From positions 864,001-928,000 of the forward strand of contig CAWEYL010000001.1 in assembly GCA_963813335.1 (NCBI GenBank): a stretch of DNA of 64,000 nt, written 5' to 3'. This document shows, piece after piece, positions 14,728 to 59,376 of the stretch. Numbering within the stretch: the stretch's first letter is position 1; each line of letters starts with the position of its first letter. This DNA comes from an uncultured Chloroflexia bacterium. Its GTDB lineage: Bacteria > Chloroflexota > Limnocylindria > Limnocylindrales > CSP1-4. The notes beneath the pieces are model-generated. The model was not told the origin of the DNA. It saw only the letters and a program-made list of their open reading frames with translations, and made no database searches. Both the position numbers and the translations under genes were made by a program.

Positions 14728-15459
14728 GTGAGCGATCGACCCGAGTTCACCCACCAGCGCGAGCGCCACGGCCTCGTCGGCCCATTCAGCGGCCGGCAGA
14801 TCCTCGCCGCGTTCCTGGCGATCGTGGCCGCCGCGATCATCCTCGTCGGGATCACCACACCGCTCGGCAATACCGGCGGTCCGGCGCTCGTCGACCCCCG
14901 GGCCACGCCGTTCGTCATCGCCTCGCCGACGCAGGGCCTGCGCCCGGGCGACCTGGCCCCCGAGCTGACGATCCCGCTGCCCGACGGCACCACCTACCAG
15001 CTGACCGACCTCGACGGGAAGCCGATCCGACTCGCCGATCTGCGCGGCAAGGTGGTCTGGCTCAACTTCTGGGCGAGCTGGTGCCCGCCGTGCCAGCACG
15101 AGACGCCGATCCTGCGCGACCTGTCGGAACGGTACAAGGAGCAGGGCCTCGAGGTCATCGGCGTCAGCGTCCAGGAGACGACGGTGGACGACGTCAAGGC
15201 GTACGCCGAGCGCTACGACCTGCACTACACGATCGGCTTCGACGCCTTCGGGTACGTGTTCCACACGTACAAGGTCTTCGCGCTGCCGACGCAGTTCTTC
15301 ATCGACGTGAACGGGGTCATCCAGCAGGTGGCCAACGGCCCGGTCGACGAGGACGCCGCTGCGGCCCTGATCGAATCGATGCTCCCGCCCGCGGCGAGTG
15401 CTGGCCCTGGCTCGAGCGCGAGTCCCGTCTCGGCGGCGCCCTCCCCTTCCCCGTCCTAG
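14728..15459 (+). CDS. Membrane-anchored TlpA/ResA thiol-disulfide oxidoreductase
   Basis: N-terminal TM; LNFWASWCPPC; LPTQFFID..G.I. Confidence 0.9.
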   Translation: MSDRPEFTHQRERHGLVGPFSGRQILAAFLAIVAAAIILVGITTPLGNTGGPALVDPRATPFVIASPTQGLRPGDLAPELTIPLPDGTTYQLTDLDGKPIRLADLRGKVVWLNFWASWCPPCQHETPILRDLSERYKEQGLEVIGVSVQETTVDDVKAYAERYDLHYTIGFDAFGYVFHTYKVFALPTQFFIDVNGVIQQVANGPVDEDAAAALIESMLPPAASAGPGSSASPVSAAPSPSPS

Positions 15460-15754
15460 ACCGGTTCGTCGCAGTCGTGCGGCCTGTTCGATGCCGCGCC
15501 GAGCCCGAATTCCCGTCAGATGACCATCAGGCGGTCCTTGGTCAGCCGCGGACCCGGGCGGTCGATCCAGGTCACGCTCGCTGAGGCACCGACAGGACGC
15601 ACGTTCCTGTCAGATGACCATGTGGCGCGACATCTGGCAGGAAGTCGCTGACGAGCGACCGCCTGAGTCACATCTGTCAGAAGTCGGCGGGCGAGACGGG
15701 GCTCGGCCCGGGCTCGGGGGCGCCGGCGACCTCCCCTTCCCCGTCCTAGACCGG
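15440..15754. mobile_element. Putative non-autonomous fold-back (MITE/REPIN-like) insertion flanked by a 25-bp direct repeat
   Basis: CCTCCCCTTCCCCGTCCTAGACCGG at 15440-15464 and 15730-15754; nested inverted repeats inside. Confidence 0.6.
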
Positions 15755-16612
15755 CTCGTAGCGGAAGCGATCGCGGTCGCGGACCACGCGGCCGATCGGC
15801 TGGCGGGCCTCGTGCGAGAGCACGATCAGCCAGTCCTCGTCCGCGGCCTGGGCGAACAGCTCGCCCTTCCGCACGACCGAGTCGAGCGGGAAGTCGTCGA
15901 ACGCGGTGACCCAGCGCGGGTTGGCCGCCCACGGCCGCATGAACAGGTCGCCGAAGAAGGCCAGCGTCCGGGCGCCGTCGCCCTCGCCGCGCACGACGAT
16001 CGCCTGGTGCCCCGTCGAGTGGCCGCCGGTCGGCACCACCGTCACGCCAGGGACCAGCTCCTTCTCGCCGTCGGCCCAGCCCTGCGCACCCCAGTCCTTG
16101 ACCAGCGTCAGCTCGGGCTGCACGTACGAGGCGACCAGCCGCGGGTTGTCGCCGAGCGCGACCTCCCACTCCGCCTTCTGGGCGACGATCTTCGCGTGCG
16201 GGAAGGCGCGTTCGCCGTCCGCGCGCAGCAGCCCGCCCGCGTGGTCGAAGTGGAGATGGCTCATCGCCACGACGTCGATGGTCTCCGGGAGGACGCCCGC
16301 CGTCTCGAGGGCGGCGACGACCCACGGCCCCTCGTAGGCGCGCATCGCGCGGGTCTTCTCGTCGACGCGCTCGCCGATGCCGGTCTCGACCAGCACGCGC
16401 CCCGACGGTGTCTCGATGACGAGGCAGTTCAGCGCCTGGAGGAGCCGTCGCTTGTCGTCGACCTCGTCGGCGACGAGGCCGCCCCACAGCACCCACGGCA
16501 CGGGGCCGAACAGCGTGCCGGCATCGGAGCGGAACGTTCCCGCCTGGATGAGCGCGACCCTCGTGCCGCCGCCGAGGTCGGCCTGCCAGTCGACCGCGTC
16601 GTTCAGCGCCAT
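15746..16612 (-). CDS. MBL-fold metallo-hydrolase (YtnP-like)
   Basis: DAGTLFGPVP, SHLHFDHAGG, GHSTGHQ and GDL motifs. Confidence 0.88.
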   Translation of the reverse strand: MALNDAVDWQADLGGGTRVALIQAGTFRSDAGTLFGPVPWVLWGGLVADEVDDKRRLLQALNCLVIETPSGRVLVETGIGERVDEKTRAMRAYEGPWVVAALETAGVLPETIDVVAMSHLHFDHAGGLLRADGERAFPHAKIVAQKAEWEVALGDNPRLVASYVQPELTLVKDWGAQGWADGEKELVPGVTVVPTGGHSTGHQAIVVRGEGDGARTLAFFGDLFMRPWAANPRWVTAFDDFPLDSVVRKGELFAQAADEDWLIVLSHEARQPIGRVVRDRDRFRYEPV

Positions 16613-51828: not shown

Positions 51829-52777
51829 TCAGGCCCGCGGATGGGCCTTGCGGTAGACGTCCCGGATCCGTTCGCCGGTCACGTGCGTGTACAGCTGGGT
51901 CGTGGAGATACTCGCATGGCCGAGCAACTCCTGGACGACCCGCAGGTCGGCGCCGCCCTCCAGCAGATGCGTCGCGAACGAATGGCGGAGCGTGTGCGGG
52001 CTGACGCGCTCGGCGAGACCGGCGCCCGCCGCCGCGTGCTTGACCGCCGCCCAGGCCTGCTGGCGTGCGAGCCGGCGGCCACGGTCGCCGACGAACACCG
52101 GGCCGCCGCGTGGCGCTTCGACGTCGGCGAGCGCGACCATGGTCTCGCGCGGCCCGTCGATCCAGCGGCCGAGCCAGTCGATCGCGACGTCCCCGACCGG
52201 CACGAGCCGCTCCTTGTCGCCCTTGCCGATGACGCGCACGAAGCCGCCGTCCATCGAGAGGTCCTCGGCATCGAGGCGAACGGCCTCGCTGACCCGGAGC
52301 CCGGCCGCGTAGAGCAGCTCGAGCAGGGCCCGGTCGCGCAGGTGCCGCGCGTGGGCCGGCTCATCGGGGTCGTCGCCACCGGCCGCCTCGAGCAGCGCCT
52401 CCGTCTCGGCGACGGTCAGCGTCTCGGGCAGCAGCCGCGACTGGCGCGGCAGGTCCAGGTGCGCCGCGACGTCGACGGCGATCAGCCCCTCGCCGTAGGC
52501 GAAGCGGTAGAAGCCCTTGAGCGCGGCCGCGCGACGACGCAGGCTGGTGGGCGCCAGGCCGGGCTCGCCGGGCTGGCCGCGCCTGGCCCGGGACGGCCAG
52601 GTAAGCCACCACCGGATCGGCCGACGCGCCCCACGAGCGCGCCACGCCCGGGCTCCGGGCGAAATCCGTGAGATCGGTCCGGTAGGCCCGGACGGTCGCA
52701 TCCGAGAGGCCCCGCTCGACGGCCAGGTGCGAGAGGTACTCGTCGATGGCGGCCTCGAGCGTGCCGGACGGGCTCAT
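51829..52777 (-). CDS. xerD: Tyrosine recombinase XerD (frame break near 52590)
   Basis: VERGLS..T..AY; RDRALLELLY..GLRVSE; GKG.KER.VP; SPHTLRHSFATHLL; VQELLGH.SI.TTQLYTHV. Confidence 0.9.
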
Positions 52778-54470
52778 CCGGCCGTCGCCGACGCTCCCCG
52801 CCATGCCTCGGCCCGGTCGAGCAGCTCGCGTGCGGCCGCGAGACCGGCCGCCGCCCCGCTGACCGCTGCCCAGCATCTGGGCGAGCTCGACGATGCGGCC
52901 CTCGCGGTCGAGCCGCTCGACCTCGGTCACCGTGCGCCCGTCCCGCTCGCGCTTGCTGATCCGGAACTGGGCGTCGGCGTGGGCCGCGATCTGCGGCAGG
53001 TGCGTGACGCACGAGGACCTGGTGGCGCCGGGCCAGCGTCCAGAGGCTGCGGCCCACGGGGTCCGCGCTCCGCCCGCCGATCCCGGTGTCGACCTCGTCG
53101 AAGACGAGCGTCGGGGTGTCGTCCGCCTCGGCGAGGACCTGCTTGATGGCCAGCGCGACCCGTGACAGCTCGCCGCCCGACGCGATCCGCGCGAGCGGCC
53201 GGAACGGCTCGCCGGCGTTCGGGGCGAGCCGGTAGACGACCTGGTCGATCCCCGCGGCATCGAAGGCGACCGCGTCGCCATCGACCTCGACCGCGGCCTC
53301 ACCCGACCCGGCCGTCCGGCGACCCAGCGCGACCTCGAAGACGCCGGCCGGGAAGCCGAGCTCGACGAGGACATGGCCCACGGCCGTGCTGAGCGTGGCG
53401 GCCGCGTCCACCCGGGCGCTCGAGAGCGCCGCCGCCGCCGCGCCGACCGATCCGAGCAGGCGCGCGTCGTCGGCCTCGCGCCGGGCCCGCTCGCCATCGA
53501 CGCCCTGCAGCCGCTCCGCCTCGGCCGCCGCCCGCTCGCCGTGGGCGATGACCGCCGCCTCGTCGTCGCCATAGCGGCGCTCGAGGCCGTAGATGACGCC
53601 CAGCCGCTCCTCGAGCGCGGCCAGGGCCGCCGGGTCGTGGTCGATGGCCTCGGCCAGGGTCCTGGTTTCCGCGGCGGCGTCCTCGAGCTCGGCCTCCAGG
53701 CCGGCGAGCCGCTCCGCCAGGTCCTCGAACCGCCCGTCGAGCCGGGCGATCGCCCGCGCCTCGTGGACGGCGCCGGCGACCGCCTCGCGCGCCCCGCCGT
53801 CGGCGGTCAGCGCCCCGTGGACCGCGGCGGCACCCCGGGCGATCGCCTCGCCGTGCTGGGCGGCGGCGAGCCGGGCGCGGATCTCGTCGGCTTCGCCGGG
53901 CCGCAGACGGGCCGCGGCGATCTCGCTCGCCTCGTACTCGAGCAGCTCCAGTCGGCGGGCGAGCTCGCGCGGGTCGGCCGTGAGCTCGTCGAGGGCGGTC
54001 CGGTTCGCCCGCCACGCGCCGACCGCGGCCGCCACCGCCCCGCGCAGCCCCGCATGGCCGCCGAAGCCGTCGAGCAGGTCGCGCTGCCAGCGCTCGTCGA
54101 GGAGGTGCTGCTGGTCGTGCTGGCCGTGGATCTCGACGAGCGGTCCGACCTCCTCGGCGAGGCGGGCGGCCGTGACGGTGTCGTCGTCGAGGCGGGCCGT
54201 CGAGCGGCCGCCGGCCGCCACCTCGCGGACGGCGATGAGCGGTTCCGGGAGCCGGTCGAAGAGGGCCTCCACCCGGGCGCTCTCGGCGCCATGACGGACG
54301 AGCGAGCTGTCGGCGCGCGCGCCGATGGCCAGCCCGAGGGCGTCGATCAGCAGGCTCTTCCCCGCCCCGGTCTCGCCGGTGATCACGTTGAACCCGTCGT
54401 CGAGGTCGAGCCGGACGCGCTCGATGACCGCGAGGTCGGTGACGGTCAGCTCGAGGAGGCGCCCGGTCAC
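52774..54470 (-). CDS. recN: DNA repair protein RecN (frame breaks near 53010 and 52850)
   Basis: ITGETGAGKS, IHGQHD, ASGGELSR, FDEVDTGIGG and VTHLPQIAA motifs. Confidence 0.95.
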
Positions 54471-55312
54471 GACGGCAGCAGCGCCACCTTGCGGCGCAGG
54501 AGGTCCCAGAAGGGCTGCGCCCCCGTGGGCTCGATCAGGCGGATGGGCCGCTCGACGGCGCGCACCTCGACGACGTCACCGACCGCGGCCGGGATGTCCT
54601 CGCGGCCGTCGATCGAGACCAGCGCCTCGTGCGCGTCGACCACCGTGCAGCGGACCGTCTGCCGCGGGCTGACGACGACCGAGCGGATGGCCGAGAGGTA
54701 CGCGGCGATCGGGGTCACGACGAGGTTGCGGCTCACCGGGTCGAGGATCGGGCCGCCGGCCGAGAACGAGTAGCCGGTCGAGCCGGTGGGGCTCGCGACG
54801 ATGAGGCCGTCGGCGATGAACGTGGCGAGGTGGGTGTCGTCGATGGAAACGTCGAGCCGGCACACTCGGGCGAGAGCGCCGCGAGCCACGACGATGTCGT
54901 TGAAGGCGACGTGGCGGACGACGTCGACCGGCTGCCCGCCGCGCAGGATGCGGCCCTCGAGCGCCATCCGCTCATCGATGCGGTAGTCGCCGGTCGCGAT
55001 CTTGCCGAGCACAGCGTCCAGCTCGCCGGCCTCCGCCTTGGAGAGGAAGCCGACCTTGCCGAGGTTGATGCCGAGGATCGGCACGTCGACCTCGGCGACG
55101 GCGCGGACCGCGCGCAGGAACGTCCCGTCGCCGCCGAGCACCACGAGGGCGTCCGTGGTCGGCAGCTCGCGGACCAGGCCAGCCAGGTCGTCCGCGGGCA
55201 GCTGCCAGTGGTCGATCGAGCGGACCTGGCACCAGCCCGTGGCGCGCGCGCTCAGCTCGATGGCCGGCTCGATCGTGGGGTTGTAGGCGAAGCCGATGCG
55301 GGTGACGGTCAT
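54467..55312 (-). CDS. nadK: NAD kinase
   Basis: GGDGT, GINLG.VGFL, ND and DGLIVASPTGSTGYS.SAGGP motifs. Confidence 0.95.
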   Translation of the reverse strand: MTVTRIGFAYNPTIEPAIELSARATGWCQVRSIDHWQLPADDLAGLVRELPTTDALVVLGGDGTFLRAVRAVAEVDVPILGINLGKVGFLSKAEAGELDAVLGKIATGDYRIDERMALEGRILRGGQPVDVVRHVAFNDIVVARGALARVCRLDVSIDDTHLATFIADGLIVASPTGSTGYSFSAGGPILDPVSRNLVVTPIAAYLSAIRSVVVSPRQTVRCTVVDAHEALVSIDGREDIPAAVGDVVEVRAVERPIRLIEPTGAQPFWDLLRRKVALLPS

Positions 55313-56127
55313 GGCCCGGTCACCGCGGTGATCCGGGCGTCGATCTCGGCACAGCCCGGCCCCGGCGCCAGGTGCAGGAGGAACTCGCGGTTGCCTTCCG
55401 GTCCGAGGATCGGCGAGGCGATGACATCCCGCGACCCGAGGCCCATCGCGCTCGCTGCCGCCACGACATCGCGCAGGACCTCGGCGTGGACGCCCGGGTC
55501 GCGGACGACACCGTGGTCGGTCCGCCCCTTCCCCACCTCGAACTGCGGCTTGACGAGCGCGACGATCGATGGCCGGGCGCCGAGCGCCGAGGCGATCGGC
55601 GCGAGCACCTTGCCGAGCGAGATGAACGAGACGTCGACCACGGCGAGCGTGGCCGGCTCGGGCAGCGTCGTCGCGGTCAGCGCCCGGGCGTTGGTGCGCT
55701 CCAGCGAGATCACGCGGGGATCGCGGCGGAGCGCGTCGGCGAGCTGGCCGCGTCCCACGTCGAGCGCGTAGACGCGGCTGGCGCCGCGCTGCAGCAGGAC
55801 GTCCGTGAAGCCGCCGGTCGAGGCGCCGACATCGAGGCAGACGAGGCCCGTCGGGTCGATCCCGAAGGCGTCCAGCGCCGCCGCGAGCTTGTGGCCGCCG
55901 CGGCTGACATACGGTTCCGGCGCATCGACGCTGACCGGTGTCGCGGCATCGACCAGGTCGCCGGGCTTGCGGTCGAGGCGGGCGGCATCGCCCTCCCCCA
56001 CCCGCACCTTGCCGGCCATCACCAGCGCCTGGGCGCGGCTGCGCGACTCGGCCAGCCCGCGCTCGACGAGCAGCTGGTCGAGCCGGATCCGCTGCGCCTT
56101 CGCGCCGGGAGCCGAGGTCGACGTCAC
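55309..56127 (-). CDS. tlyA: TlyA-family rRNA methyltransferase/hemolysin
   Basis: RLD.LLV, YVSRGG.KL, DVGASTGGFTD, DVSFISL, VKPQFE and GN.EFL motifs. Confidence 0.94.
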   Translation of the reverse strand: MTSTSAPGAKAQRIRLDQLLVERGLAESRSRAQALVMAGKVRVGEGDAARLDRKPGDLVDAATPVSVDAPEPYVSRGGHKLAAALDAFGIDPTGLVCLDVGASTGGFTDVLLQRGASRVYALDVGRGQLADALRRDPRVISLERTNARALTATTLPEPATLAVVDVSFISLGKVLAPIASALGARPSIVALVKPQFEVGKGRTDHGVVRDPGVHAEVLRDVVAAASAMGLGSRDVIASPILGPEGNREFLLHLAPGPGCAEIDARITAVTGP

Positions 56128-56440
56128 CCGCCTATCGTGGCACAGCGCGCTGCACCCGGACGTATGCCCGGGCGGGCGCGGCCGCGAGTCGGGCAGCGCG
56201 ATCATTTCACGGCACATGGCCTGGCAGACCCGAATCCTTGCCCGATGGTCCGGGGTCGACCGGTCAGGGTCGCCTCATGCCGGTCCCTGGGGTCCGGGAG
56301 TCCGCATTCGATGTGCGGGGGGTTGACCGCGGTGCCAACCAACGGGCGGACGCAGGCATCGTGGCATCCTGGTCCGCCCATGGGCGCGTCCCGAGCGGCT
56401 GATAAGCGGCAGATACGCGACGGCTGCTTCCATCGATCCC

Positions 56441-57199
56441 ATGCCGTTGGGGCCAGCCACCATCAAGCGCGAATCTGTCCGACGGTTGTCGCATCTCGAG
56501 CGGCAGGCTGGTGACGACGTCCGCAGGATGCGCCTCGATGCGAACGTGACCTTGGCGGAGCTCGCTCGGGCGACCATGTTGGACCCTCGTTACCTCGCCC
56601 GGATCGAAACGGGGACCGTCCATCCGAGCAACGCCGTCCTCGTTCGCGTCGGCGTGGCGCTGGGTGCCGACCTCAGCCTGAGGTACTTCCCCGGCAGCGG
56701 CCCGCGGATCCACGACCGCTTCCAGGCGCCGATGATCGAAGCGCTGCTGCGGACGCTGGATCAGCGGTGGCAACGCGAGCTCGAGGTCCCGGTCCTCCGA
56801 CCCAGCCGCGGTGTCATCGACCTCGTGCTTCGCGACCCGCTGACCATCGTTGCCACCGAGGTCTATTCGGATCTCCGTCGGCTCGAGCAGCAAGTCCGCT
56901 GGAGCGCGGAGAAGGCCGACGGCCTTCGCGTCCGACTCGATGAGCTGGAGCGGATCGGCGCACCGCACCAGGTCTCTCGGCTCCTCGTTCTTCGGTCCAC
57001 GGTCGCGACGAGATCACTCGCCATGGAGTACCGCGAGACCCTTGCCGCCGCATATCCAGCGCGATCCGCGGCGATCCACGCGGCCCTGACCATGCAGGAC
57101 GTCGCATGGCCCGGCCCTGGCATCCTCTGGATCCACCTCCACGGGAAGACGGCGACGGTCATGCGACATCCGCCACCCGGAGTCACACTCGGTCGCTGA
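56441..57199 (+). CDS. XRE-HTH plus restriction-endonuclease-like (PD-(D/E)xK / DUF559-like) protein
   Basis: N-terminal HTH (R......TLAELA......YLARIE.G); C-terminal W..EV.V...RGVIDLVL......ATEVYS pattern. Confidence 0.7.
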   Translation: MPLGPATIKRESVRRLSHLERQAGDDVRRMRLDANVTLAELARATMLDPRYLARIETGTVHPSNAVLVRVGVALGADLSLRYFPGSGPRIHDRFQAPMIEALLRTLDQRWQRELEVPVLRPSRGVIDLVLRDPLTIVATEVYSDLRRLEQQVRWSAEKADGLRVRLDELERIGAPHQVSRLLVLRSTVATRSLAMEYRETLAAAYPARSAAIHAALTMQDVAWPGPGILWIHLHGKTATVMRHPPPGVTLGR

Positions 57200-57402
57200 C
57201 GCGGTCCCTCGGTCCGGTTTCTCTGCTTCGGCAAGTCTTGAGCGGCGCATCGAGGCGCGTGACTCATGGTGCGGGGCTCGCCAGACCCGAACGACCGCGC
57301 CCTCGAGGATCGCGAGCGCGTCCTGCTTCCGTCATGCACGAGAACCGGACTCACCAGCCAGTCGGGCGCGATGCCTCGCAGGGCACCCGAGCGGGCGCGG
57401 GC

Positions 57403-59376
57403 TCAGTCGCCGATCGGCGCCTTCGAGCGCCCGGGCGCGGCCTGCAGCGACGCGAGCGTCTCGCGCACCTGCGCGGCGAGCCCCGCCGCGTCGAGGCGCA
57501 GGACCCGGCGCAGGTCCGTGACCGAACCGTGGTCGACGAAGCGGTCGCCCGGGATGCCGATCGCGTGGACGGCGACCTCGCGCAGCGCCGGATCGGTCAG
57601 CCGGGCATCCTCGAGCAGCTCGAGCACGCCGCTGCCGAAGCCGCCGGTGACCACGCTCTCCTCGAAGGTCACGACCAGCGACTTGCCGCGCGCGCCGTCG
57701 AGGATCAGCTGGCCGTCGAGTGGCTTGGCGAACCGCGCGTTGATGACGCCGACCGACCAGCCCTCGGCCGCGAGCAGGTCCGCGGCCTCCATCGCCCGCG
57801 CCACGATCGGCCCGAAGCCGACGAACAGCAGGTCGCGGCCCTCGCGCAGGACCTCGCCGCGGCCGATCGGCAGGATCGCCGGTTCGACCGGATCGAGCCC
57901 GAAGCCCGCGTCGCGCGGGTAGTGCAGGGCGAACGGGTGGTCCTGGGCGAAGGCCGTGCGGACCATCGAGCGCAGCTCCTGCTCATCGCGCGGCGAGGCG
58001 ATCACCAGGTTCGGGAGCTGCCGCTGGGCGGGCAGCGTGAACATCCCCTGGTGGCTGGTCCCGTCCTCGCCGACGAGGCCGGCCCGGTCCACCGCGATCA
58101 CGACCGGCTGGTCGTTCTGGCAGACGTCGTGGACGGTCTGGTCGAAGGCGCGCTGCAGGAAGGTCGAGTACAGCGCTACGACGGGTCGCAGCCCGCCGAG
58201 GGCGAGGCCGGTGGCGAACGTCATGGCGTGCTGCTCGGCGATGCCGACATCGAAGAAGCGGTCCGGGAACTCGGCCTGGAACCGCGACAGCCCCGTGCCG
58301 GTCGGCATGCCGGCCGTGATCCCGACGATCCGCCGGTCCGTGCGGGCGAGGTCGATCAGCTCCGCGGCGAAGACCGCGGTGTAGTTCGGGAGCTTCTTCG
58401 CGGCCGCGGGGAGCTCCGAGGGCGGCGCGGCGTCGTCGGCCATCGACTCGGTCGGCAGGATCGGCGCCATCGGTGGCAGCGCGGCACCGTGGAAGCCGAC
58501 CTGGTCGGTCTCGGCCGGGCGGTAGCCGCGCCCCTTCTGGGTCCGGACGTGGACGATCGTCGGTCCGGGCAGCGCCAGGGCGCGGCCAAGGGTCTCGACC
58601 AGCGCGTGCAGGTCGTGGCCGGGCACGACCCCGATGTAGGTGATGCCGAGGTCCTCGAACAGCTGCCCGGGCTGGGCGAAGCGCACGACCGAGGCGCGCA
58701 GGCGGCGCGACCACTCGAGCAGCGTCGGGCCGGCGACCGGGATGCGCTCCACGGTCCGGTCGTAGGCGCCCTTGCTCTGGCGCCACGCCTGCGACAGCTT
58801 GATCTGGCTGAGGTACCTCGAGAACGCGCCGACCGTCGGGCTGATCGACATCTCGTTGTCGTTGACCACGATCAGCATCTGGGTCTGGCGCTGGCCGATG
58901 TCGTTGAGGGCCTCGAGCGACAGGCCGCTCATCAGCGCCGCGTCGCCGACGACGACCGCGATCCGCTCGAGGCCGTGGCGGATGTCGCGGGCCTCGGCCA
59001 GTCCCTCGGCCACCGACAGCCCGGTGCCGGCGTGGCCGCCGTCGAAGACGTCGTGGGGCGACTCGGAGCGGCGAGGGAACCCGCCGATCCCGTCGAGCTG
59101 GCGCAGCGTCCCGAAGCGCTCGAGCCGGCCGGTCAGGAGCTTGTGCGGGTAGGCCTGGTGGCCCGTGTCCCAGACGATCCGGTCGCGCGGCGACTCGAGG
59201 AGCCGATGGAGCGCGATCGTGAGCTCGACGACGCCAAGTGACGAGCCCAGGTGGCCGCCCGTGTGGGCGACGGTCGCGATGATCGTCTCGCGGATCTCCA
59301 GCGCGAGCTGGGCGAGCTGGACCTCGTCGAGCCCGCGCAGGTCGGCGGGTCCGCTGAGGCTCGGCAGGATGGGCAC
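57403..59376 (-). CDS. dxs: 1-deoxy-D-xylulose-5-phosphate synthase
   Basis: GGHLGSSLGVVEL, WDTGHQAYPHK, GDAA..G...EALN, NDN.MSI, DVGIAEQH, YSTFLQRA.DQ and DRAG.VG.DG motifs. Confidence 0.97.
   Translation of the reverse strand: MPILPSLSGPADLRGLDEVQLAQLALEIRETIIATVAHTGGHLGSSLGVVELTIALHRLLESPRDRIVWDTGHQAYPHKLLTGRLERFGTLRQLDGIGGFPRRSESPHDVFDGGHAGTGLSVAEGLAEARDIRHGLERIAVVVGDAALMSGLSLEALNDIGQRQTQMLIVVNDNEMSISPTVGAFSRYLSQIKLSQAWRQSKGAYDRTVERIPVAGPTLLEWSRRLRASVVRFAQPGQLFEDLGITYIGVVPGHDLHALVETLGRALALPGPTIVHVRTQKGRGYRPAETDQVGFHGAALPPMAPILPTESMADDAAPPSELPAAAKKLPNYTAVFAAELIDLARTDRRIVGITAGMPTGTGLSRFQAEFPDRFFDVGIAEQHAMTFATGLALGGLRPVVALYSTFLQRAFDQTVHDVCQNDQPVVIAVDRAGLVGEDGTSHQGMFTLPAQRQLPNLVIASPRDEQELRSMVRTAFAQDHPFALHYPRDAGFGLDPVEPAILPIGRGEVLREGRDLLFVGFGPIVARAMEAADLLAAEGWSVGVINARFAKPLDGQLILDGARGKSLVVTFEESVVTGGFGSGVLELLEDARLTDPALREVAVHAIGIPGDRFVDHGSVTDLRRVLRLDAAGLAAQVRETLASLQAAPGRSKAPIGD

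Follow-up and report, generated by a model that had tools for sequence, protein, structure and literature searches.

Outside the RAYT and Ssn cases, it is an open question how short intergenic repeats of bacteria can spread when no standard transposase is at hand. In RAYT-REPIN systems, as set out in the part of the preprint drawn on here (bioRxiv 10.1101/2021.07.10.451892), a single gene sits at a fixed extragenic locus, has a host-like tree and is frequently lost, and its cognate non-autonomous repeats, about 100-200 base pairs (bp) long, lie between genes and decay where the gene is missing. Here we analyse a cassette in a 64,000-nucleotide stretch of a Limnocylindria genome (the window; GenBank assembly GCA_963813335.1, contig CAWEYL010000001.1, positions 864,001 to 928,000), in which a gene for a helix-turn-helix (HTH) domain of the XRE type fused to a PD-(D/E)XK fold lies between the host genes dxs and tlyA, flanked by arrays of palindromic sites and, outside these, by a duplicated target. 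The cassette and its relatives are a real mobile-element system of the resident-nuclease and dispersed-repeat kind, and there is a reasonable chance that their mobility involves a new chemistry. The family would represent a third solution to repeat spread, with another enzyme fold, a single 252-amino-acid protein, a clade-variable 17-bp site, fixed helical spacing and long duplications. The features of the locus, in window coordinates, are:

56441..57199, plus strand: cassette gene, 252 amino acids, the sole open reading frame (ORF) of the region between dxs and the tlyA-type gene
56216..56377: left module, three 17-bp sites (56216-56232, 56289-56305, 56361-56377) spaced 73 and 72 bp
57201..57361: right module, three 17-bp sites (57201-57217, 57273-57289, 57345-57361) spaced 72 and 72 bp
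56167..56191: left target-duplication copy, degenerate in the window allele and 12 bases short of another strain's allele
57386..57410: right target-duplication copy, comprising the last dxs codons, the stop codon at 57403-57405 and a further 17 bases
56399..56434, plus strand: likely leaderless promoter region of the cassette gene; a tandem short motif common to family members (upstream listing, 42 members) suggests the promoter role
57403..59376, minus strand: host gene dxs (Pfam DXP_synthase_N), convergent with the cassette
55309..56127, minus strand: tlyA-type host gene (S4 and FtsJ methyltransferase), its start set at 56127 from an upstream motif conserved in relatives

Phased modules, target duplication and encoded protein

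Palindromes with odd spacers are enriched in the flanks of family genes. The site core has two half-sites of 7 bp separated by 3 bp, with C-pyrimidine and purine-G inside, and its outer bases vary by clade and appear to track the recognition helix. Over 58 elements, perfect core palindromes number 22 compared with 1.2 ± 0.9 in shuffles, and 2 inside the ORFs; the motif was defined post hoc from the same data, and the relatives are not independent. Distances between like sites cluster at 52, 61-62, 72-73, 113, 124, 133, 144 and 186 bp, with 93 pairs at the preferred distances versus 6 in shuffles, and the best period over 85 site-to-site distances is 10.3 bp (phase 0, R 0.55). The window spacing of 72 bp corresponds to seven helical turns. 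Such whole-turn spacing suggests that the proteins sit on a single face of double-stranded DNA.

Searching with the window flanks by direct similarity returned no copies; only a model combining sites and spacing found them. A matrix trained solely on two gene-less (solo) modules of the same genome (C3 near 495.0 and 442.8 kb) ranked the right flank second and the left flank third genome-wide among triplets spaced 71-73 bp, rank 1 being one of the training modules, and at a control spacing of 66 bp one triplet scored 27.4, above the window flanks. A preliminary description of the locus had singled out short motifs shared by the flanks and an inverted repeat on the right, and had advised comparison with shuffled sequence. 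Both are present, lying within the right module, but in this comparison neither exceeds chance alone (168/1000 shuffles reach the shared 10-mer and 266/500 the inverted repeat), whereas the edge repeat described below does; the two are pieces of the phased sites, which are significant as a triplet. By alignment, the right flank is not a simple repeat of the left one, and no terminal inverted repeats surround the cassette, the best inverted match between the window flanks scoring 10, which equals the null median. At three other loci (L007, L012 and L003), both flanks of the cassette share long direct repeats (146, 110 and 34 bp, respectively); this suggests that the two modules of one cassette may have been homogenised or freshly copied there.

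The edge repeat is shared by the dxs end and the stretch before the tlyA promoter. It scores 12 (14/15 in its core), which is reached by 13 of 1000 dinucleotide shuffles and by none of 88 cross-genome pairings (p 0.011). A contig from run X1 carries 12 extra bases in the left copy and is otherwise identical over 509 bases; its left copy matches the right copy of the window at 23 of 25 positions and restores the duplicated dxs stop codon. In contigs from runs X4 and X5, two substitutions in the right copy abolish both mismatches to the X1 left copy, giving 25/25. These alleles were compared by hand, stem from separate runs and never from one molecule, and X1 is possibly the source of the window. 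The suspected duplication of the dxs 3' end is upheld. Since a 25-bp species-specific repeat cannot match the age of the 40% protein divergence between orthologues, the cassette was likely re-inserted recently in the dxs-tlyA slot.

Duplications at the same slot are also found in the congeners G009 (19/19), G014 (18/18) and G083 (10/10). With one copy and the cassette removed, the spacers measure 53 (G009), 60 (G014) and 45 bp (window), and so fall within or slightly exceed the range of 39-58 bp shown by 14 of the 16 empty alleles. Four remnants and 27 slots with other inserts show no repeat above the cross-genome null. Two other loci among 57 tested have outer repeats, matching at 19/19 and 26/27 (null 99th percentile 15), and duplication lengths vary throughout (12, 18, 19, 19, 25, 27, 33, 36 and 36 bp). 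The duplications often include a stop codon, and the preliminary description had inferred an element that targets gene 3' ends. Active targeting does not follow from this pattern, because in very short spacers only stop-including insertions would survive. Extra partial repeats beside the target duplications at L003, at L005 and at window 56167-56195 look like scars of earlier insertion cycles at the slot.

The cassette protein combines an N-terminal helix and XRE HTH (residues about 5-81) with a PD-(D/E)XK-fold domain (residues about 88-252, including D92, E115, D127, E140 and K158). Pfam HTH_31 matches residues 24-81 (expect value, E, 8.8e-9), whereas the C-terminal domain has no family match in Pfam, NCBIfam or PADLOC and nothing meaningful among solved structures by sequence. 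In an AlphaFold model from a 38-row alignment (predicted local distance difference test, pLDDT, 91), residues about 91-251 resemble NucS (Z 9.8, root-mean-square deviation (rmsd) 2.7 over 102), XisH (Z 9.7, rmsd 3.1 over 120) and SfsA (Z 8.6, rmsd 3.1 over 115). Foldseek rows for this domain list NucS, XisH, Bax1 and the R2 nuclease domain, and a viral fold search gave matches mainly to the HTH, for which C.BclI (Z 11.8) and C.AhdI (Z 11.4) are the best structural matches. The five residues named above are invariant in 120 of 120 homologues; among 113 distant representatives, D127 is kept in 112 and E140 in 111. With the core alpha/beta fold in the model and conserved acidic residues (D127, E140) as expected for metal ligands where the core strands end, the protein is a probable member of the PD-(D/E)XK superfamily. 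The HTH_31 match and the fold model agree with the initial assignment of an XRE-HTH and PD-(D/E)xK-like gene running opposite to both dxs and tlyA, and every feature mapped at that stage was found in place. Nonsynonymous rates are below synonymous rates (dN < dS) in both domains in 6/6 pairs. A two-copy prediction gave a homodimer score of 0.71 versus 0.00 for the best control (interface residues 3-92, contact agreement at least 93%, pLDDT at least 82), a mark that 20 of 30 known pairs attain, as does 1 of 23 single chains.

Family distribution, home loci and solo modules

Among the genomes searched, the family occurs only in the class Limnocylindria of Chloroflexota. Its profile matches 80 of 81 congeneric genomes, with up to 19 matches per genome (the weak ones include plain HTH proteins), and 11 of 121 genomes in a phylum-wide draw, every one in the same class; source names of homologues point to Limnocylindrales, and the plasmid and phage collections hold no match. 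The cassette protein has 1095 close hits, and with E up to 1e-30, clustering at 50% identity gives 397 clusters, a few of which are multi-HTH proteins. The family accounts for thousands of proteins that have no annotation beyond XRE regulator, in a class that is abundant in soil and wetland. The genome of the window (G000, 81% complete; congeners are labelled G### and loci L###) contains six full-length family genes, all divergent, the closest paralogue of the cassette gene being 50% identical. Apart from the cassette gene and the frameshifted gene beside dnaK, four divergent family genes are located at C1 55446-56213, 1046916-1047548, 1135271-1135894 and 196455-197183.

A tree of 60 family proteins places the dxs-slot copies in one group of 18, of which 17 adjoin dxs or tlyA and L007 lies elsewhere. 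Other clades each have their own locus: by an Lhr-like helicase gene, after an fdhD-like gene or after an ABC substrate-binding gene (names assigned by eye), and the dnaK-side clade lies beside dnaK at 25 of 42 loci. Two other clades are codirectional with the upstream gene, so the antisense orientation is not general. In the comparison of element and host trees over 15 genomes, most groups agree (Spearman 0.36 over 105 non-independent pairs); three conflicts are rejected by approximately unbiased (AU) tests (p 0.031, 0.012 and 0.0004), for groups picked after seeing the trees. The gene thus behaves as a resident, subject to frequent loss and occasional exchange, and does not jump freely; the picture of a freely spreading gene is not supported. 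With the clade at dxs-tlyA in 17 of 18 loci and a mostly host-like tree, the dispersed units are gene-less modules. The G010 clade member (L007) sits at another locus, and the dxs-tlyA slot of that genome (L028) keeps a single palindromic site of the same type; it is possible that this member relocated from the slot.

Slot occupancy was scored in the 64 genomes with both anchors, out of 69 with a tlyA region (two of the five lacking the dxs anchor carry the gene). A full or nearly full gene is present in 14 (two broken), fragments in 3, dxs is directly adjacent in 16, and the slot of the remaining 31 contains other DNA, among it unrelated genes and, in one case, a remnant without the gene. Direct dxs-tlyA adjacency in relatives, proposed earlier as a check, is found in 16 of 64 genomes. 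The empty alleles measure 13-58 bp from dxs to a conserved promoter-like motif. Gene presence is unclustered on the host tree, with 12 changes for 15 rows (366/500 shuffles are as low). Other slot inserts (G080, G070, G051, G007, G077, G087, G045, G041, G091 and others) are often a 230-amino-acid membrane protein, ion-channel-like by eye, whose gene lies in either orientation and sometimes alongside the nuclease cassette.

Solo modules are tied to the cognate gene. One site variant is found nine times in G009, 16 times in G083 and nine times in G092, each with an intact cognate gene, and nine times in G023, where the gene is deleted and its flanks are kept; of this G009/G083-type variant, G061 has three occurrences and each of the other 76 of the 81 genomes no more than one, gene-less sister taxa included. 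Solo loci were fetched for 20 of 34 matches in three genomes, and 14 of them are 139-bp three-site units whose sites follow each other at 61 bp. Among three G083 units from separate loci, linker identity is 76-84% versus a median of 36%. Three solo loci are bracketed by duplications, which match at 30/36, 32/33 and 12/12 (null maximum 14). At one solo slot, G004 and G013 have no insert; G083 and G009 carry modules there that are unrelated to each other (30% linker identity), and both are accompanied by a repeat of the end of the upstream gene. The window gene has solo modules of its own at G000 C3 494964-495126 and 442823-442990 (L210, L211), the latter absent at the same place in G065, G078, G020 and G047. 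A short tandem repeat array precedes the module at C3 494964-495126.

The window contains a second element, near 15.4 kb, for which the preliminary description had supposed the dxs-site gene to be the autonomous counterpart:

15433..15759: solo module belonging to another family member, with its units at 15509-15683

It is bracketed by a 36-bp near-perfect duplication including the upstream stop codon and is one of eight multi-unit copies of a second module class in G000, the others lying at C1 356783, 822131 and 1147193, C2 92973, and C3 153388, 164393 and 218954. One copy follows directly behind a dnaK-side family gene (C3 152750-153420, frameshifted in the assembly). A model from five second-class units finds matches at 25 of 42 dnaK-subfamily loci, mostly at fixed positions, and at 0 of 61 loci of other subfamilies. 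The supposed link was right in kind, as both belong to the same gene family, but named the wrong partner, and we reject the 15.4 kb element as a passenger of the dxs-site gene in favour of the dnaK-side member as its cognate. In relatives, the 15.4 kb slot is usually empty (G047 has a similar module), and a gene-bearing version was not found there, with 0 family genes in 50 loci.

Several observations concern the neighbourhood. Every congener examined keeps the promoter-like motif before tlyA (window 56128-56165), which is similar to the one found upstream of family genes; the tlyA-nadK-recN run may possibly be regulated together with the nuclease genes. This conserved motif includes a five-base half-site match in 28 of 69 genomes, at most a lead as to why each clade returns to one slot. 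A recN-like ORF (window 52482-54470) continues, by eye, into an off-frame tail that suggests a frameshift or sequencing error near its 3' end. The window also contains a tyrosine recombinase ORF (by eye).

Proposed mechanism and rival explanations

We consider it fairly probable that the family is a RAYT-REPIN-like bipartite system, in which a repressor-nuclease fusion works with phased double-stranded sites, and short gaps between genes receive copies of the modules and, in rare cases, of the whole cassette. The observed basis is the domain architecture, the conserved acidic residues, the helical spacing, the solos tied to a cognate gene in two subfamilies, the empty sites, the long variable duplications and the single locus per clade; from these we infer protein binding, DNA cutting and module mobility. 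An HTH-nuclease dimer likely binds the 17-bp palindromes of the module triplets, and dimers on one DNA face would assemble into a higher-order complex. The protein likely cuts near the module ends and in the target with a stagger of 12-36 bp; host repair would fill the staggered target cuts and produce the duplication. Host enzymes would join the ends, because the protein is devoid of a strand-transfer, reverse-transcriptase or HUH domain. The gene would be mostly vertical, often lost and now and then re-inserted in the same slot, whereby the duplication is renewed. The initial notion of a mobile single-gene cassette devoid of a classical transposase agrees with this reading, as no transposase matched and empty sites are seen in relatives.

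More tentatively, the reading might be extended to class-wide elements that move without a strand-transfer enzyme: an HTH-restriction-fold protein on phased operator triplets would cut donor and target, host repair would paste the module or cassette and leave duplications of 12-36 bp, and each clade would have its own operator code and chromosomal home, several systems operating in parallel per genome. Matched protein-site pairs from dozens of genomes allow direct tests.

A number of observations weigh against the bipartite system. Duplications do not exceed chance at 17 of the 20 solo loci or in 6 of the 8 units of the 15.4 kb class; the other 10 of the 14 full copies at the slot show none above the cross-genome null, and 29 dnaK-subfamily loci tested have none at the cassette edges. 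The dxs-tlyA slot also accepts unrelated genes. In eight runs of contigs, which drop rare variants, no contig of the window strain skips the cassette, and the one cassette-skipping joint seen comes from a contig only about 84% alike. As to the protein, the fold Z-scores of the nuclease domain are only moderate (8.6-9.8), its single-sequence model is poor (pLDDT 44), and the dimer pass may stem from likeness to solved XRE dimers. Finally, position 142, that of the E-x-K lysine, is Q, Y, H or N in homologues, so that catalysis would rest on K158 or a variant site. Conservation suggests that K158 may be a migrated catalytic lysine; lysine migration among PD-(D/E)XK enzymes is described in PMC3424549, the consulted part of which lists HTH-fused PD-(D/E)XK families as likely regulators and has no entry for the present family that we could find.

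The missing lysine would suit a protein whose sole part is to recognise the modules, for targeting or regulation, while a separate host or mobile-element enzyme moves them. We also know of no PD-(D/E)XK enzyme that joins DNA ends alone. XisH, which is among the nearest folds, acts as an accessory factor when elements are excised, according to the part of PMC3424549 consulted. Nevertheless, we find such a helper enzyme unlikely: five catalytic-type residues are invariant, and in the G000 assembly reverse transcriptase PF00078, Y1 transposase PF01797 and DUF559 have no match, a search that extended to these and not to other transposase or recombinase families.

The single locus per clade, the patchy presence with broken copies and gene-less remnants at the slot, the three tree conflicts and the lack of plasmid and phage matches would also be expected of a free-standing homing-type endonuclease spreading among relatives at a fixed slot, the solos being former cassettes that lost the gene through flank recombination. 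Homing by gene conversion, however, is not known to make fresh target duplications, whereas species-specific ones bracket the cassette; solos occur at many loci where no gene was found, as at the 15.4 kb slot, and near-identical ones lie at three unrelated G083 loci. This explanation therefore appears distinctly unlikely to us. A domesticated regulator or chromosome organiser, with modules as functional binding arrays and flanking repeats arising from slippage in GC-rich DNA, would suit the C-protein-like HTH and C-box-like sites (as presented in part of PMC3488213), a helical phasing compatible with looping, the purifying selection and the mostly vertical descent, but is unlikely given that the gene is missing from the slot in 47 of 64 genomes, that modules are absent at orthologous sites of close relatives, that many have convergent genes on their two sides and so are remote from promoters (4 clear cases among 9 solos), and that the edges of the inserts are marked by duplications in which host stop codons are included.

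Comparison with known systems

We found no description of the family in the literature searched, which covered neither most subscription papers nor any supplements. Lone nuclease genes with flanking repeats may already have been described in Actinobacteria. By its features the system falls outside insertion sequences, homing endonucleases and restriction-modification, and by its enzyme it falls outside RAYT-REPIN and Ssn-NTS. Compared with insertion sequences and MITEs (small transposable elements with inverted repeats), the cassette matches no DDE, HUH, serine or DEDD transposase, has no terminal inverted repeats and no family-fixed duplication length, and its own genome holds no near-identical gene copies. 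NucS, XisH, SfsA, Bax1 and the nuclease domain of the R2 retrotransposon are alike in fold, at 12-20% identity and with no sequence-level match; likeness of fold shows no function.

The C proteins and C-boxes of restriction-modification systems, as far as covered in the consulted part of PMC3488213, share with the cassette the HTH type, its top matches being C.BclI and C.AhdI, and an arrangement of two half-sites around a 3-bp spacer. Here, however, the HTH is fused to a nuclease fold, no DNA methyltransferase gene lies beside it (the slot neighbours being dxs and the S4-FtsJ gene), and the sites, at distances of 52-83 bp, flank the gene on either side and are also scattered through the genome. 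Free-standing homing endonucleases, among them the PD-(D/E)XK-related I-Bth0305I (part of PMC3239194), resemble the family in having one locus per clade, patchy presence, decayed copies and a nuclease as the sole gene, but differ from it in that long target duplications, flanking site arrays and dispersed gene-less modules are found here.

Closer are the Ssn-NTS systems of Neisseria and others, in which, according to the portion of PMC11893778 consulted, a lone nuclease gene is flanked by its own palindromic repeats in the absence of a classical transposase, and many gene-repeat pairs co-evolve. Ssn is, in the same account, a single-domain GIY-YIG nuclease acting on single-stranded hairpins, whereas the cassette protein has two domains and no GIY-YIG match, and its HTH and the whole-turn spacing point to double-stranded binding. 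The word 'duplication' is absent from the main text of PMC11893778.

With RAYT-REPIN systems, as portrayed in the consulted part of the preprint, the family shares the fixed extragenic locus, mostly vertical descent, frequent loss and dispersed extragenic repeats dependent on the cognate gene, as well as several gene-repeat pairs within one genome. The enzyme is different: RAYT is an HUH tyrosine transposase, whereas the protein here is an XRE-HTH with a PD-(D/E)XK fold and has no HUH/Y1 transposase domain. The units also differ, consisting here of three helically phased sites with poorly conserved linkers (36% median identity) and reaching copy numbers of about 2-16, in contrast to the hundreds described for REPINs. 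Finally, whereas RAYTs are said there not to move, the cassette analysed here has fresh target duplications.

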